NCBI GenBank assembly: GCA_963802255.1
Contig: CAWDHY010000002.1
Coordinates: 183,480-247,479, forward strand
Direction: 5' to 3'
Length of the DNA stretch: 64,000 nt
Origin: Candidatus Magasanikiibacteriota bacterium
GTDB lineage: Bacteria > Patescibacteriota > Patescibacteriia > Magasanikbacterales > GWA2-37-8
In this document: positions 2,681 to 27,514 of the stretch, one piece after another
How the letters are laid out: every line of letters starts with the position of its first letter
Numbering within the stretch: the stretch's first letter is position 1
Program-made: the position numbers and the translations under genes
Notes under the pieces: generated by a model
The model's database searches: none
The model's input: only the letters and a program-made list of their open reading frames with translations
Told to the model about the DNA's origin: nothing

Positions 2681-3247
2681 ATGGGTATATCTTACATTAT
2701 TCTCATTGTATTGGCAATAGTAGCCGTTTGGCTGATTGCCACATATAATGGCTTGGTTAAGGGCAAAAATCAAGTTGACGAAGCATACAGCGACATAGAC
2801 GTCCAGCTTAAACGCCGGTATGATCTAATTCCAAATTTGATGGAAACTGTGAAGGGTTACATGACCCACGAACAAGGCACGATGGTAAAAGTAACCGAAG
2901 CCCGGGTCGCGGCCATGGCAGTGCATGAAAACAAAAACGCAACTTTGGAACAACGCGGGCAGGCGGAGAATATGCTTTCCAACACATTGAAATCACTTTT
3001 TGCAGTAACAGAAAACTACCCGGATTTAAAGGCCAGTCAAAACTTTATGCAATTACAGGACGAACTTTCTGATACTGAAAACAAAATTCAAGCAGCCCGC
3101 CGGTTCTACAACGGCAATGTCCGGGACTTTAACACCAAAATTCAGGTGTTTCCAACCAACATGATCGCCGGTTGGCTCAAATTCACAAAATATGATTTTT
3201 TCCAAGCGGCCGAAGGTGAAAAACAAAATGTCCAAGTAAAATTCTAA
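2681..3247 (+). CDS. lemA: LemA family protein
   Basis: N-terminal TM followed by the LemA signature (NGLV...QVDEAYSDIDVQLKRRYDLIPNL...TENYPDLKA); typical pairing with the downstream M48 protease. Confidence 0.85.
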   Translation: MGISYIILIVLAIVAVWLIATYNGLVKGKNQVDEAYSDIDVQLKRRYDLIPNLMETVKGYMTHEQGTMVKVTEARVAAMAVHENKNATLEQRGQAENMLSNTLKSLFAVTENYPDLKASQNFMQLQDELSDTENKIQAARRFYNGNVRDFNTKIQVFPTNMIAGWLKFTKYDFFQAAEGEKQNVQVKF

Positions 3248-3291
3248 ATGAAAAAAACGGCCCCGATTACGGGGTCGTTTGATAATTATAT

Positions 3292-4228: not shown

Positions 4229-4249
4229 GAGCCGCTCCGAGAGCGGCTC
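4229..4249. terminator. GC hairpin gagccgctc/gagcggctc between convergent htpX and the 4281-4508 gene
   Basis: Near-perfect inverted repeat between two converging transcription units; no strong T-tract. Confidence 0.45.
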
Positions 4250-4280
4250 ATAAGCTTAAAGAACAAATCCTTCTTGCATC

Positions 4281-4508
4281 TCATTTTCTCGATGAAATTT
4301 CATCCACCAGCCGGCGCTCTTCGGGGTTCAGCACCACTTCTTCTTGTTCGTGGCTAAAATCGTCTTCGAGCAAAAACTGCACTGCTTCCGGATGCCACGA
4401 ATCCCTAGCGCCTTCAACTCCTCCCCTTCTGCGGCTTCTCCCGCCATCTGACGAGATGCCGTCAAATCTTGGTTGGTAGAGATCCTCGCTTCTCGCCCTC
4501 TTTCTCAT
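4281..4508 (-). CDS. small Arg-rich hypothetical protein (75 aa) encoded in a GC-rich island
   Basis: ORF preceded by a strong SD (aaggagggaaaATG) and a TTGACA-N17-TAAAAT promoter at 4552-4580; local GC well above the genome background. Confidence 0.45.
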   Translation of the reverse strand: MRKRARSEDLYQPRFDGISSDGGRSRRRGGVEGARDSWHPEAVQFLLEDDFSHEQEEVVLNPEERRLVDEISSRK

Positions 4509-22971: not shown

Positions 22972-23121
22972 GGGTCAATTTGACATTATTTTAGCTCTCG
23001 GCTAATATAATTGGCATCAAATCACATATATATCTGTAATATAAACTATAGAGCCATTTACAAGCTCTTCCACTCGTAAATGCCCGCATTTGCAGGCATT
23101 CCCGTTCAACTGTATTCGCTT

Positions 23122-25368
23122 ATGAAAACACTTGTAATTGTAGAGTCCCCGGCAAAAGCCAAAACAATATCCAAATTCCTCGGTGGTAAATATGCGGTCA
23201 AATCTTCATTTGGCCATATTCGCGACCTACCAAAACGCGAGCTGGGTATTGATGTTGATAAAAATTTTGAACCCAAATATGTAGTCAGCCGGGACAAAGC
23301 AAAAATAGTCAAAGAATTAAAAACTGCAGCCGCAAAAGTCAAAGAAGTGCTATTTGCAACTGATGAAGACCGTGAAGGAGAAGCTATTTCCTGGCATCTG
23401 GCAAATGTCCTCAACATTGATCCAAATAAGGTCAGCCGCATAGCTTTTCACGAAATCACAAAAGAAGCGATTGAAAAAGCGTTGGAAAACCCGCGCAAGC
23501 TTGATATGAAATTAGTTGATGCCCAGCAAGGCCGTCGTATTCTTGACCGTTTAGTCGGATACAAACTATCCCCTTTTCTATGGCGAAAAGTAGCCAAAGG
23601 ATTATCTGCGGGTCGGGTACAATCGGTAGCTGTTCGTCTTATTGTTGAACGCGAACGCGAAATCAAAGATTTTAAACCGGAAGAGTACTGGTCTGTTGAA
23701 GGAAATTTTTCCGAGGGAAACAGCGATTCATTTATCGCCAAACTTACCACCACGCCCGACGGCAAACTTGATAAAATGGATTTGAAAAATCAATCAGCGG
23801 TTGACGGAATACTTTCAAATCTAAAAAGTGCCACCTATACGATTTCAAATACGGAAGAAAAATTGACTAACCGACAGCCTTCTCCCCCTTTTATTACTTC
23901 CACTCTTCAGCAGGAGGCCAATCATCGCTTGGGTTTTTCCGCCAAGCAAACAATGCGTATCGCTCAACAGTTATATGAAGGCGTAGAACTCGGGCCCGAA
24001 GGATCTGTGGGCTTAATCACCTACATGCGTACCGATTCTACAAACTTATCCGAAAAATTTTTACAAGATGCAAAAACCGCCATCACCGAAGGCTACGGAG
24101 CAAAATTTTATAACGGCGAACCACGGATTTTTAAAACAAAAAATAAAAATGCTCAGGAAGCGCATGAGGCAATCAGACCAACTGAAGCCTCCCGCAATCC
24201 AGATTCCATCGAGACATTTTTAGAGCGCAATCAATATAAATTATACGACTTGATTTGGCGCCGGGCGCTGTCATCGCAGATGGCCGCGGCGAAAGTAAAT
24301 AACGCCGTTATTGATATTGAATCAAACAATAAATATGTTTTCCGCGCAAACGGACAAAATCTTGTTTTTGAAGGATTTTTAAAATTATATCCGGAAAAAA
24401 CTAAAGAAAATTTATTGCCAAAAGTTGAAAATGGCGCTGTGGTAAAATGCGACGAACTTAAACCTGAACAGCATTTTACCGAACCACCGGGAAGATATTC
24501 CGACGCGACATTGGTCAAAGCACTGGAAGAATTCGGCATTGGCCGCCCATCTACTTATGCGCCAACAATCGCCACTATTGAAGACCGCGGCTATGTTATG
24601 CGCGATGAAAAGAAAAAACTTTTTCCACGCGATATCGCCTATTTGGTAAATGACCTGCTGGTCGCTCACTTTCCAAATATTGTCGATTTTAAATTTACGG
24701 CTCAAATGGAAGAAAATCTCGACCAGGTTGCCGAGGGTGAAAAAGAATGGCAACCTGTAATCGCCGAATTTTATGGCCCATTTAAGGATAATCTTGAGCA
24801 AAAAGACAAGGAACTGTCTAAAAAAGAATTAACTGAAGAAAAGACCGATGAAGTATGCGATAAATGTGGATCTCCTATGGTCATACGCGTTGGAAGATTC
24901 GGCAAATTTATGGCTTGTTCCGATTATCCCCAATGCAAAAATACTAAACCACTGCCGGGCGAAGAAGGCGCTGAATCAGCTTCAGTTATTGAAGCAACAA
25001 GTGAAGCATGCGAAAAATGCGGAGCGCCGATGGTAAGAAAAGTCGGGCGTTTTGGGCCGTTTATCAGCTGCAGTGCTTATCCGAAGTGCAAAAATATAAA
25101 AAGTATTGAAATTAAGATAAATCTAAAATGTCCAAAATGCTCCGAAGGGGATGTTATACAACGAAAGACTAAAAGAGGTAAAATATTCTTTGGTTGTAAC
25201 CGTTATCCAAAATGCGATTTTGCCCTTTGGGACAAACCGACCGGAGAAAAATGCCCGGCCTGCGATAGCCCTATGGTCCAAAACAAAAAAGAAGATACAA
25301 TTTGCAGTAACAAAGAATGTCCATCCTCCGGCTCAAAGAAAAAGAAGGATGTTAAAACCAAAAAATAA
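23122..25368 (+). CDS. topA: DNA topoisomerase I with C-terminal Cys4 zinc-ribbon repeats
   Basis: TOPRIM MKTLVIVESPAKAKTI, active-site region, several CxxC..CxxC zinc ribbons at the C-terminus; true start at MKTLVIV rather than the ORF-track 23080. Confidence 0.9.
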   Translation: MKTLVIVESPAKAKTISKFLGGKYAVKSSFGHIRDLPKRELGIDVDKNFEPKYVVSRDKAKIVKELKTAAAKVKEVLFATDEDREGEAISWHLANVLNIDPNKVSRIAFHEITKEAIEKALENPRKLDMKLVDAQQGRRILDRLVGYKLSPFLWRKVAKGLSAGRVQSVAVRLIVEREREIKDFKPEEYWSVEGNFSEGNSDSFIAKLTTTPDGKLDKMDLKNQSAVDGILSNLKSATYTISNTEEKLTNRQPSPPFITSTLQQEANHRLGFSAKQTMRIAQQLYEGVELGPEGSVGLITYMRTDSTNLSEKFLQDAKTAITEGYGAKFYNGEPRIFKTKNKNAQEAHEAIRPTEASRNPDSIETFLERNQYKLYDLIWRRALSSQMAAAKVNNAVIDIESNNKYVFRANGQNLVFEGFLKLYPEKTKENLLPKVENGAVVKCDELKPEQHFTEPPGRYSDATLVKALEEFGIGRPSTYAPTIATIEDRGYVMRDEKKKLFPRDIAYLVNDLLVAHFPNIVDFKFTAQMEENLDQVAEGEKEWQPVIAEFYGPFKDNLEQKDKELSKKELTEEKTDEVCDKCGSPMVIRVGRFGKFMACSDYPQCKNTKPLPGEEGAESASVIEATSEACEKCGAPMVRKVGRFGPFISCSAYPKCKNIKSIEIKINLKCPKCSEGDVIQRKTKRGKIFFGCNRYPKCDFALWDKPTGEKCPACDSPMVQNKKEDTICSNKECPSSGSKKKKDVKTKK

Positions 25369-25377
25369 TTATAAAAA

Positions 25378-25403
25378 CATCCGCTTGAGGGCGGATGTTT
25401 TTA
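25378..25403 (+). terminator. intrinsic terminator for topA (catccgc-ttgagg-gcggatg-ttttt)
   Basis: 7-bp stem followed by a T-tract. Confidence 0.7.
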
Positions 25404-25569
25404 TTGCAGGGGCGAAAGGCGAACCTTAATGCCTTTGGTGATGTTAAGGGCCGATCGCCTCCTGCAAATAATACCTTAGCATAAAAAACTAAAAATATCA
25501 ATGGGCGGCTCCCTCTCAACTACTTGTGTCAATCCTATATTTCGACGCCTAAATTTAAGAAATAAAAAA

Positions 25570-25805
25570 GGGGCCACTCCGAAAAACGATCGGAGGGGCC
25601 CCATACCTGTATCTTGCCGCTAATCTTGTCTGTGACACTGCCCGTCATGTTTTGACAACAACCTGGGAGGGTTTTGACGCGACACTGCCGCTAGCGGTCT
25701 TTTCCGGGCGATTTCTTCCATGACTTCTTCCACGGTCGCCCAGCGCACTCCAACAGGCATGGAGCGCCTTTGTAAAGGAGCGGTACTTGCTCTGACCTGC
25801 TGCAA
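25570..25805 (-). ncRNA. GC-rich transcription unit of about 235 nt bounded by promoter and terminator; candidate small ncRNA, or alternatively a 46-aa small ORF (MPVGVRWATV...)
   Basis: Minus-strand promoter TTGACG N17 TAGACT (25811-25839); terminator ggggccactccg...cggaggggcccc plus T-tract (25563-25604); internal hairpins and direct repeats of GGCAGTGTC and GTCAAAAC; no ORF starts downstream of the predicted transcription start with a good SD. Confidence 0.3.
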
Positions 25806-25810
25806 CAAAT

Positions 25811-25839
25811 AGTCTATCACAGAGCTTTTTTGTCGTCAA
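25811..25839 (-). promoter_or_regulatory. sigma70-type promoter TTGACG N17 TAGACT
   Basis: Hexamers with 17-nt spacing on the minus strand. Confidence 0.45.
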
Positions 25840-26008
25840 GAAAAGCTATAAAAAGCAAAAACCCCGTGTCCAGAGGGCACGGAGTTTTGCAGCACTAAGT
25901 TCTTAACATCACGAAAATACTATAGCACAAATTATCCATCTTGTCAAGTCCGGCAAATAGAGATAGAATAAAAAATGGGCCATATCAGGGCTTTTATTTT
26001 ACAGAACT

Positions 26009-27514
26009 ATGATAAGCCAGATAGTATTACCACAAAAAGTTACACTCGATTCTTTGGTTGATGAGCTAAAGAAATATTGCATAAAATCCGACCTTGAGAT
26101 GGTCCGGATGGCTTATGATTTTGCCGCTGAAGCCCACAAAGGCCAGGTACGCTTTAATGGAGAACCATACATCTCTCATCCGCTCACCGCCGCCTATATT
26201 CTTGCCATGATGCATATTGATATCAACATTATTATCGCGGCTCTTCTTCATGACGTTCCTGAGGATACCGACATTACTTTAGATGCTATTGAAAAAAAGT
26301 TCGGCCGTGACGTGGCCAATATGGCGAGAGGTATAACAAAATTAGGAAAATTGAAATACCGCGGAGTTGAACGCTACTTGGAAAATTTGCGAAAAATGTT
26401 TGTGGCTATGGCCGAAGATATCCGGGTGATGATTATAAAATTTGCCGACCGCATCCACAATCTTCTTACCCTTGAGGCTCAGCCACCTAACAAGCAATAT
26501 CGTATTGCATTGGAGAGCCTGGAGATTTATGCACCAATTGCCAACCGTCTCGGCATGGGAGAATTTAAAGGCATACTTGAGGATCTTTCTTTTCAATATG
26601 TTTTTCCGAAAGAATATGAACGCGTCAAAGAAATTAGCGATGAAACCATTGCCGAAGAAGAGCCTTATTTAGATCAGATAATGGTGGAATCAAAAAAAGA
26701 AATCAGGGATGCCGGCATAAAAATTATTGACATACATGGAAGAAAAAAACGGCTGTATAGCTTATTTCAAAAATTGAAACAAAAAGATTGGGACGTGGAT
26801 CAGATACACGATATTGTAGCCGTGCGTATTTTAGTCCCGGGTATAAGCGATTGCTATGCCGCTCTTGGAATTATTCATAAATTATGGCGCCCTCTTAAGG
26901 GAAGGATAAAGGATTATATTTCACAGCCGAAACCAAACGGATACAAGTCTTTGCATACGACGGTTTTTTGCGACGACGGAAAAGTGGTGGAATTTCAAAT
27001 CCGCACGCCTGAAATGCATGAGGCTGCTGAATTCGGTATTGCCGCGCATTGGCATTATGACGAAAAGAAAGGCCCGCCCCGCGCCATGGCTAAAGACGTT
27101 AGCTGGGCGAAAGAACTGGCGCGCATACAAAAGGAAGTTTTAAACAATCTTTCCGATCTGGATTCATTAAAAATTGATTTCTTTCAGAATCGAATTTTTG
27201 TTTTTACTCCGAATGGAGATGTCATAGACCTGCCGGAAAATGCCACTCCGGTTGATTTTGCATATCATATTCACACTGATATCGGTAACAAATGTAACGG
27301 CGCTCTGGTTAACGAACAGATGGTATCGCTCGACACCGCACTGCGAAGCGGAGACGTCGTTGAGGTGATTGTTGACAAAAACCGCAAGGGCCCAAGCCGC
27401 GATTGGCTAAAATTTGTTAAAACGCATGTGGCAAAATCCCGCATCAGACAATATCTTAATACGCAGAAAAAAAACTGGCTGGCGACAATTTTGCCGATGC
27501 CATTAAAAAAATAA
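26009..27514 (+). CDS. short RelA/SpoT homolog: bifunctional (p)ppGpp hydrolase/synthetase with TGS domain, no ACT/CC domains
   Basis: HD domain (HDVPEDT), synthetase core (RILVPG...YKSLHTTV), TGS segment; only 501 aa. Confidence 0.85.
   Translation: MISQIVLPQKVTLDSLVDELKKYCIKSDLEMVRMAYDFAAEAHKGQVRFNGEPYISHPLTAAYILAMMHIDINIIIAALLHDVPEDTDITLDAIEKKFGRDVANMARGITKLGKLKYRGVERYLENLRKMFVAMAEDIRVMIIKFADRIHNLLTLEAQPPNKQYRIALESLEIYAPIANRLGMGEFKGILEDLSFQYVFPKEYERVKEISDETIAEEEPYLDQIMVESKKEIRDAGIKIIDIHGRKKRLYSLFQKLKQKDWDVDQIHDIVAVRILVPGISDCYAALGIIHKLWRPLKGRIKDYISQPKPNGYKSLHTTVFCDDGKVVEFQIRTPEMHEAAEFGIAAHWHYDEKKGPPRAMAKDVSWAKELARIQKEVLNNLSDLDSLKIDFFQNRIFVFTPNGDVIDLPENATPVDFAYHIHTDIGNKCNGALVNEQMVSLDTALRSGDVVEVIVDKNRKGPSRDWLKFVKTHVAKSRIRQYLNTQKKNWLATILPMPLKK

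Follow-up and report, generated by a model that had tools for sequence, protein, structure and literature searches.

What does the largest intergenic gap of this Candidatus Magasanikbacteria genome (Patescibacteria, candidate phyla radiation) encode? The stretch of DNA analyzed here, called the window, is 64,000 nucleotides long, and the gap (25369-26008) separates topA from relA. On its minus strand, as read in the window and in close relatives, the gap is a series of tandem promoter-to-terminator units. The one in question, unit B, lies between two others, units A and C, and shares its strand with both. A first-pass annotation of the sequence had proposed unit B as a candidate non-coding RNA (ncRNA), with a small open reading frame (ORF) as the alternative. 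Our analysis supports the ncRNA, since unit B matches no Rfam family and contains no conserved frame, and it adds covariation to the case. We conclude that unit B is probably an independent gene whose product is a non-coding, structured small RNA (sRNA) of about 240 nt. It would belong to an undescribed, fast-changing family, so far met only in a Magasanikbacteria sub-clade with a relA at least 75% identical to that of the window.

Unit B has the boundaries of a gene

The elements of unit B and of the RNA predicted from it are as follows (numbers preceded by L designate related loci).

25839-25834, minus strand: -35 hexamer TTGACG, found by promoter scan; TTGAC[AGC] stands at the equivalent place in 12/12 related loci
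25819-25818 and 25816-25811, minus strand: extended -10, with TG, one base and TAGACT, at a 17-nt spacer from the -35; TAnnnT at 16-17 nt in relatives
25805-25564, minus strand: predicted unit B transcript, about 242 nt, 55% GC; 5' end placed from the -10 position
25767-25745, minus strand: hairpin H2, GCGCUCCA / UGGAGUGC, 8 bp, with the 7-nt loop UGCCUGU at 25759-25753 and preceded by motif CCUUUACAAAGG
25760-25620, minus strand: 46-aa ORF (MPVGVRW...), judged not to be a gene (unconserved, without homologues)
25732-25710, minus strand: tandem purine-rich 11-mers UGGAAGAAGUC and UGGAAGAAAUC (repeat analysis, family D1)
25708-25695, minus strand: motif CCCGGAAAAGACCG, common to L166, L175, L002 and L169 as CCGGAAAAG / CCAGAAAAG
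25674-25661, minus strand: small hairpin of the minimum free energy (MFE) structure, with an AACC/GGUU stem and the C-rich loop CCUCCC
25610-25604, minus strand: ACAGGUA, proposed 3' partner of the H2 loop, one base from the terminator foot
25602-25570, minus strand: stem of the intrinsic terminator, GGGGCC(C)CUCCGA / UCGGAG(U)GGCCCC, 12 bp with one C.U mismatch
25569-25562, minus strand: terminator U tract, UUUUUUAU, directly after the stem

Most of these elements had been recognized in the first-pass annotation, and they withstood our analysis. The TTGACG-N17-TAGACT promoter is present on the minus strand (25839-25811) and scores 9 of 12, plus the TG. The terminator, described as strong with a 12-bp stem, one mismatch and a T-tract, folds at -25.0 kcal/mol (z = -5.5), and 0/200 shuffles fold equally well. 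Between the two, the transcript, first put at about 235 nt, is predicted at about 242 nt and is convergent with topA; its GC content, noted as about 55%, is indeed 55% as compared with 42.6% for the whole window. The hairpin gcgctcca...tggagtgcgc, our H2, is real (8 bp, -14 kcal/mol, z = -3.5). Both of the direct repeats listed, GGCAGTGTC x2 and GTCAAAAC x2, were found again, together with two more, TAGCGGCA x2 and the tandem UGGAAGAAGUC/UGGAAGAAAUC.

The same slot is occupied in twelve related genomes

Related loci were collected with relA. Genome and metagenome scans yielded 160 relA loci, among which the only close relatives were L001 and L002, metagenome-assembled genomes of Magasanikbacteria that carry the relA most similar to that of the window (89% and 79% identity, respectively); the metagenome scan gave no relative closer than 71%. 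Further close relatives were obtained by a protein-collection search with relA, followed by retrieval of the contigs encoding proteins 75-86% identical. In 12 related genomes (L001, L002, L161, L162, L163, L166, L168, L169, L170, L175, L176 and L177), whose relA is 75-89% identical to that of the window, a promoter-to-terminator unit occupies the same slot on the same strand, which gives a family of 13 members in a narrow clade. Accordingly spaced are the flanking units: A and C stand 285-921 nt apart in the window and the 12 relatives (except L175, whose contig stops before unit C) versus 59-233 nt in most genomes. The extra DNA of the 12 relatives is one unit B, to which some add a second unit, B'. 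The slot is empty in more distant genomes, unit B is missing from L164 (relA 76%), and the L168 copy is shortened.

Two subgroups can be recognized with nhmmer, an alignable one, S1 (L001, L163, L162, L170 and L177), and a second formed by L166 and L175. Family-wide, the promoter geometry is TTGAC[AGC], 16-17 nt and TAnnnT, usually with the TG extension, and terminators were found in 13/13 members. Because this geometry and the terminator recur in the 12 genomes, these features exceed chance. Other common traits are a 5' start GC(A/U)RCRGG, a UUUAnnnAGG-type motif before H2, a short motif before the terminator, the CCGGAAAAG/CCAGAAAAG motif and GAAGAAG-type purine tracts, which recur among the members: UGGAAGAAGUC is identical in the window and L161, and GAAGAAGAA loops are found in L001, L163 and L177. 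CU-rich loops were also read, by eye, in the L001, L163, L162 and L169 sequences.

The B' units lie on the minus strand between A and C at L002:2960-3500, L161:~2800-3250, L166:~2480-2790 and L176:~560-900; the window has none. They are GC-rich, and each carries an ORF of 28-46 aa, preceded by a strong GGAGAAGGAGG-type Shine-Dalgarno (SD) site; the B' peptides are unlike between genomes and the 3' non-coding parts of B' are similar. The topA-relA gap is insertion-prone more generally. Unrelated GC-rich ORFs occupy it at L018:3300-3900 and L045:3400-3950 (the one in L045 is lipoprotein-like), and a minus-strand membrane-protein-like gene is also among its contents in other Magasanikbacteria, where the gaps of L006, L043 and L057 were examined too. 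The distance between topA and relA ranges from an overlap (-55 nt) to about 2.4 kb, with many genomes below 100 nt or overlapping.

A covarying hairpin and a loop-tail pairing

An H2-type hairpin follows the UUUAnnnAGG-type motif in 12/13 members. Standard pairs fill 95% of the stem cells, and each of the eight positions common to the 12 members shows 2-5 pair types, so that the stem sequences differ completely between members while pairing stays, as seen in the following stems.

Window: GCGCUCCA/UGGAGUGC
L161: GCGUUCCU/AGGAGCGU
L002: GUACUCU/AGAGUAC
L175: CUCUCC/GGAGAG
L176: GUUCUC/GAGAAC
S1: GCACA(G/A)CCC/GGG(C/U)gUGUGC

Within the ~45 nt that precede the terminator lies a motif complementary to the H2 loop, and changes in one are matched by changes in the other. 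This loop-tail pairing was found in 12/12 full-length members, in four covarying versions (CCUGU:ACAGG, AACUGUA:UACAGUU, ACCCG:CGGGU and CACCC:GGGUG). The individual pairings, loop before tail, are these.

Window: UGCCUGU:ACAGGUA, 7 bp, 6 Watson-Crick, shuffle P = 0.03
L161: GCCUGU:ACAGGC
L002: GCCUGU:ACAGGU
L166 and L175: CCUGU:ACAGG
L176: AACUGUA:UACAGUU, 7 Watson-Crick pairs
L169: UCUCACCCG:UGGGUGGGA
S1 (five members, 5/5): ACCCG:CGGGU

Each RNA contains the partner 5-mer a single time, apart from that of L169, which has two copies. When S1 loops are set on CCUGU-type tails, they form at most 3 Watson-Crick pairs (4 with L176 and L169) as compared with 5 on their own tails. If the four variants are counted as independent, a rough Fisher combination of the shuffle P values comes to ~3e-4. 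The composite loop-tail motif occurs 3 times in 128 kb of window, one of these at unit B, and turns up at a frequency of 3.6e-4 when the window RNA body is dinucleotide-shuffled 100,000 times. For S1, RNAalifold shows double-sided changes at 8/39 pairs, including pairs of H2 and of the terminator, and the 3' 40 nt are almost invariant. A full-length consensus structure of the window-type members could not be built, the MAFFT alignments reaching 47% column identity. A closing stem of the window MFE structure, pairing the 5' end with GACCGCUAGC, is not conserved and was set aside.

Folding energies were compared with those of shuffled sequences. At full length, z is -3.3 for the sense and -0.8 for the antisense strand, the sense value coming mainly from the terminator; without it, z is -1.8 and +0.9, respectively, and the family mean is only about -1. 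The signal is strand-specific, the sense strand folding better than the antisense. The first-pass annotation had argued for a structured RNA and had pointed to RNAfold and covariation analysis as a check. The covariation check favours it, since both the H2 stems and the loop-tail pairing covary; the case from overall folding is less strong than presented, the excess stability beyond the terminator being modest (z = -1.8). Altogether, the comparison of members supports, but does not prove, that H2 and the putative loop-tail pseudoknot are real structural features.

Unit B does not appear to encode a protein

The 46-aa frame proposed earlier exists at 25760-25620, and it is absent from the relatives. 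No reading frame is common to the homologous units, and L161, L175, L176 and L168 lack any ORF of at least 20 aa. Between pairs 83-85% identical, 14/17 indels are not multiples of three, and tblastx between family members gave nothing. A Pfam search of five ORFs on both strands returned no match, and the six frames, joined with X spacers and compared with 5.8 billion protein clusters, gave nothing at E<=1. An exhaustive phmmer search with the 66-aa GTG ORF listed three proteins at E<1e-3; all three proved to be unrelated proteins with tandem repeats (1007-1314 aa), and each score adds up 7-9 weak matches to repeats. Judged by these comparisons, unit B is not a protein gene.

Unit B matches no known RNA

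With Rfam 15 at gathering thresholds, three tRNAs were the only matches in the window, and tRNAs were the only matches in 14 related loci. E-value scans gave nothing over unit B at E<=10 in the window gap and nothing over its homologues at E<=1 in the L002 gap and E<=5 in seven further loci. No family matched, so unit B stands as a candidate novel ncRNA. ARAGORN, applied to 25300-26100, found neither a tRNA nor a transfer-messenger RNA (tmRNA), which would combine a tRNA-like acceptor/T-arm domain with a tag reading frame. The first-pass annotation had seen by eye no match to domain IV of the signal recognition particle (SRP) RNA, the tmRNA ends or the CR-I motif of RNase P, and here Rfam, ARAGORN and inspection agree with it.

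Each known class was also considered by its own hallmarks. In 6S RNA, the 5' and 3' ends pair into an extended rod with a large central bubble; in 13/13 members of the unit B family, the MFE and centroid structures are multi-hairpin with no consistent end-to-end pairing, and RF00013 does not match. For SRP RNA, of the 4.5S or Bacillus type, we looked for helix 8 of domain IV with its GNAR tetraloop and conserved symmetric and asymmetric loops: neither RF00169 nor RF01854 matches at E<=10, and no GGAA-capped helix with the AGCA motif was seen by eye. No RNase P model matches, CR-I (GAGGAAAGUCC) and CR-V (ACAGAAnCCGGCUUA) of helix P4 are absent by inspection, and unit B is missing in related genomes. 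As for a riboswitch, T-box or leader, the Rfam scans matched no known riboswitch model to unit B, and the minus strand downstream holds only unit C, with its own promoter, and then the convergent topA. Type I toxin-antitoxin systems combine a short hydrophobic toxin ORF with an sRNA complementary to its mRNA; in the window there is no conserved ORF in or beside unit B and no excess complementarity to A or C. CRISPR and TIGR-type guide arrays (PMC12045711), in which repeats follow at regular intervals beside a cas or tas gene, have no counterpart here: unit B contains only four short two-copy repeats, and its neighbours are topA, relA, parB and parA. With neither an array nor a Tas or IS110 gene present, TIGR-Tas and IS110 bridge RNA were likewise rejected.

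Unit B changes faster than its neighbours

The divergence of unit B was compared with that of relA for three pairs of loci.

Window and L001: relA 89% (amino acids); unit B unalignable, different subgroup
Window and L161: relA 86% (amino acids); unit B ~45% (nucleotides)
L170 and L177: relA 96% (amino acids); unit B 84% (nucleotides)

When the window is compared with L001, the A- and C-containing parts of the gap still align at ~91% nucleotide identity. These alignments indicate that unit B diverges far faster than its neighbours. In the relA tree, the distribution of S1 and non-S1 types agrees with the clades except at L001. This sister of the window carries an S1 allele (L001:3457-3748) that is 85% identical to that of L163, whereas relA of L001 and L163 is only 78% identical. 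The conflict between the allele and the relA placement indicates that unit B of L001 was probably replaced by recombination between lineages.

A mobile-element origin found no support: blastn searches of phage and plasmid collections gave no match, and neither the S1 H2 motif nor the unit C core turned up when viral contigs were scanned. A badly spaced, low-specificity pattern returned 22 viral matches, none of which resembles A, B or C, and we attribute them to chance. On the minus strand, motif CCUUUACAAAGGC of unit B (25778-25755) resembles the unit C core CCUUAACAUCACCAAAGGC (25449-25429) minus the 6-nt A-binding segment CAUCAC(C), and the resemblance also holds in L001. A duplication of unit C may have given rise to unit B, unless the resemblance is a coincidence.

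Alternative explanations

Unit B could be a decaying GC-rich foreign insertion in an insertion-prone slot, transcribed or not, with no present function. The high variability of the topA-relA gap, with its unrelated GC-rich ORFs in L018 and L045, agrees with such a leftover, as do a divergence far above that of the flanks, the weak fold z-scores, the shortened L168 copy, the lack of B in L164 and an allele type in L001 that differs from its sister genome. We nevertheless find this unlikely, given that 12 lineages (relA 72-96%) have preserved the promoter, the terminator, H2 and the loop-tail complementarity, with compensatory changes, and that the 3' end of S1 hardly varies; in addition, no frame resembles any protein, so no pseudogene is recognizable, and phage or plasmid DNA does not match. 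Alternatively, unit B could be a cis sensor, riboswitch- or attenuator-like, in which the loop-tail pairing sets read-through into unit C and antisense to topA. This idea draws on the position of the pseudoknot 3' strand, 1 nt from the terminator stem in the window and in 4/5 S1 members (L162 being ambiguous), on the start of unit C only ~100 nt downstream of B, and on the window pairing, which can be extended to 10 bp (CCAUGCCUGU:ACAGGUAUGG) and, by reading, would then open the first two terminator pairs. L161 and L002, however, do not share the extended pairing, five members have the partner 9-14 nt away from the terminator, no known riboswitch model matches, and no protein gene lies downstream on the minus strand. 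A cis role is disfavoured above all because unit C is equipped with a strong conserved promoter of its own and, in most genomes, occurs in the absence of B, and we consider it quite improbable.

We give still less credence to a very divergent housekeeping RNA (6S, SRP, RNase P or tmRNA) missed by the Rfam models. A 6S or SRP RNA would be compatible with the size of unit B, with its GC richness and with its strong promoter and terminator, and candidate phyla radiation genomes are poorly represented in Rfam seed alignments. Yet eight members searched with permissive filters matched none of these families up to E<=10, ARAGORN found no tmRNA, and the MFE structures are multi-hairpin instead of the 6S rod with its central bubble. 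Moreover, unit B is absent at this slot in most Magasanikbacteria, lost in L164 and replaced by another allele in the sister genome, which is not expected of an essential RNA. Least probable of all is a small protein gene on the minus strand, consisting of the 46-aa ATG or the 66-aa GTG ORF. In its favour are the open frame with AAAGG 8 nt upstream of the ATG, an 82-aa ORF that a gene caller placed in the homologous unit of L177, and the three proteins listed by phmmer. The last are the tandem-repeat proteins described above, and the missing frame in all relatives, the four members without an ORF, the indel lengths and the lack of any Pfam match or homologue for any frame all speak against coding. 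The AUG is furthermore buried at the H2 stem/loop junction. The relA product of precisely this genome has a database entry, yet no predicted protein matched any frame of unit B, which suggests that no ORF was called there.

The stand-alone sRNA gene also has to face several observations that weigh against it. By sequence, the window copy is an orphan, since nhmmer with the window unit matches only itself, and its membership in the family rests on synteny, conservation of promoter and terminator, and short motifs. The transcript, like its 5' end, is a prediction from the sequence. The loop-tail helices are short (5-9 bp), with shuffle P values per sequence of 0.0015-0.2, mostly 0.01-0.2; the reverse loop-tail combinations are not clearly worse than the cognate ones, and RNAalifold proposes an alternative partner for CGGG in S1. 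Once the terminator is left out, the excess in folding energy is weak and differs from member to member, and the very fast divergence could mean weak constraint. Concerning targets, duplex energies of B with A or C are no better than those of shuffles, except in L001, and B was consequently rejected as a partner or sponge of these units. Against the start regions of relA and topA, the sole targets examined, no consistent pairing signal emerged. Finally, the scarce use of SD sites, described below, removes the most obvious role for the CU-rich loop.

A possible mode of action and related systems

If unit B is such a gene, its RNA would adopt a compact fold, with the 5' domain linked to the 3' end through the loop-tail pseudoknot, and it would act in trans as a regulatory RNA. 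The elements kept amid the turnover are the UUUAnnnAGG-type motif, H2, the loop-tail pairing, the GGAAAAG/GAAGAAG tracts and the terminator with its U tail. A/G-rich (ARN)n tracts and a terminator U tail are modules bound by RNA chaperones and RNA-binding proteins, as in the Hfq class II sRNAs, and unit B does possess the intrinsic terminator with U tail that characterizes Hfq-type sRNAs. The presence of (ARN)n-like tracts and of this tail favours a protein-bound regulatory RNA; its role, chaperone-assisted or protein-titrating, would be preferred over simple anti-SD pairing. Indeed, a GGAG/AGGA-type motif lies within 25 nt upstream of only 5/50 window genes (a rough estimate, with starts taken from the longest ORFs), and the host seems, from this count, to initiate translation largely without SD pairing. 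CU-rich loops are therefore unlikely to mask ribosome-binding sites, and an anti-SD action of the CCUCC loops was dropped. Within our overall confidence in the gene, the trans-acting, protein-associated mechanism is advanced tentatively, as one plausible option and not as the expected outcome.

Among known systems, ChiX and MgrR (Hfq class II) and RsaE/RoxS (Firmicutes, with a C-rich loop) share many traits with unit B: an intergenic position, a sigma-70 promoter, no ORF, a GC-rich terminator with U tail, (ARN)n-like tracts, a C-rich hairpin loop, restriction to a lineage and fast evolution outside short motifs. Unit B differs from most such sRNAs in being longer and more GC-rich, and neither a conserved single-stranded seed nor a target was found for it; unlike seed-type sRNAs, it keeps a long-range loop-tail pairing, in a host that hardly uses SD sites. 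Searching the GC-rich intergenic regions of AT-rich genomes for orphan structured ncRNAs is a described approach (PMC8632094). Breaker-lab-type motifs such as the raiA motif RNA resemble unit B as independently transcribed GC-rich islands of 200-300 nt with a conserved pseudoknot-like tertiary pairing and variable peripheral helices, from which unit B differs by the lack of an Rfam 15 match, a much narrower distribution and a much faster turnover. With 6S RNA and Ms1 (PMC4191392), unit B shares the size range, a strong promoter, low conservation and the status of a stand-alone gene. It departs from them in its multi-branched predicted folds, as opposed to a long rod with a central bubble, in the lack of an Rfam 6S match and in not being universal even within the order. 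We class unit B as a new family within a known kind, and not as a novel type of system.

Units A and C and other features of the window

The units that flank unit B, and the bidirectional terminator shared with topA, are the following.

25947-25919, minus strand: unit A promoter TTGACA-N17-TGcTATAGT, near-consensus
~25912-25850, minus strand: predicted unit A RNA, ~63 nt, starting with GUGAUGUUAAG
25890-25855, minus strand: unit A terminator hairpin
25501-25473, minus strand: unit C promoter TTGATA-N17-TGcTAAGGT
25465-25406, minus strand: unit C 60-nt hairpin, with a highly conserved apex CCUUaaCAUCACCAnnGGCAUUnAGG and covarying outer stems; fold z = -7.6
25404-25371, minus strand: unit C terminator, which is the bidirectional topA terminator

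Neither unit is in Rfam. With nhmmer profiles applied to 178 sequences (the window and 177 loci), unit A was found in 59/178, unit C in 67/178 and both in 54. Where both are present, they nearly always stand as A then C on the same strand, even away from topA. The 5' end of unit A, GUGAUGUUAAG (25912-25902), is the exact reverse complement of the unit C apex CUUAACAUCAC (25448-25438). Complementarity between A and C extends over 7-15 nt (mean 11.7), and compensatory changes maintain it in 34 distinct A/C pairs, such as GUGAUAUUAAGG/CCUUAAUAUCAC and GGUAAUAUAAAGGUU/AGCCUUUAUAUUACC; contiguous Watson-Crick pairs average 9.9 for cognate and 6.0 for non-cognate combinations. From these alignments, A and C look like an undescribed interacting sRNA pair, widespread in Magasanikbacteria.

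The -35 of unit A (TTGACA, minus strand, 25947-25942) overlaps the predicted -35 of relA (TTGTCA, plus strand, 25941-25946) within the quasi-palindrome CTTGTCAAG, and the two promoters, which are divergent and stand back to back, may compete for RNA polymerase. The genes around the gap are topA (23080-25368, plus strand), relA (26009-27514, plus strand; RelA/SpoT-type, with Pfam domains HD_4, RelA_SpoT and TGS) and, after relA, parB and parA. Elsewhere in the window, a GC-rich ORF of ~75 aa lies in an intergenic gap on the minus strand (~4281-4508), with a TTGACA-N17-TAAAAT promoter, a terminator near 4230-4250 and a strong AAGGAGGG SD site that is exceptional in this SD-poor genome.

Implications

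Candidate phyla radiation bacteria have tiny genomes and few classical regulators, and to our knowledge almost nothing is known about their regulatory or structured RNAs. A bolder scheme, possible in our view but doubtful, is that the topA-relA gap is a small-RNA island in which an A/C core pairs through 11-15 bp co-evolving across at least 34 variants, and into which, in one sub-clade, B was inserted as a new class of pseudoknotted RNA of ~240-330 nt, for example a subunit of an unknown ribonucleoprotein or a sensor, perhaps derived from a duplication of C. If it holds, a new structured RNA class would have been found that evolves by rapid turnover and allele exchange. The A:C pair may turn out to be a discovery of wider reach and greater importance than unit B. 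With clear boundaries, 13 members and two testable features, H2 and the loop-tail pseudoknot, the unit B family is a target for metatranscriptome mining and covariance-model searches. It may also show how RNA genes turn over in reduced genomes, keeping a conserved skeleton amid rapid change elsewhere and, in one clear case, undergoing allele replacement.

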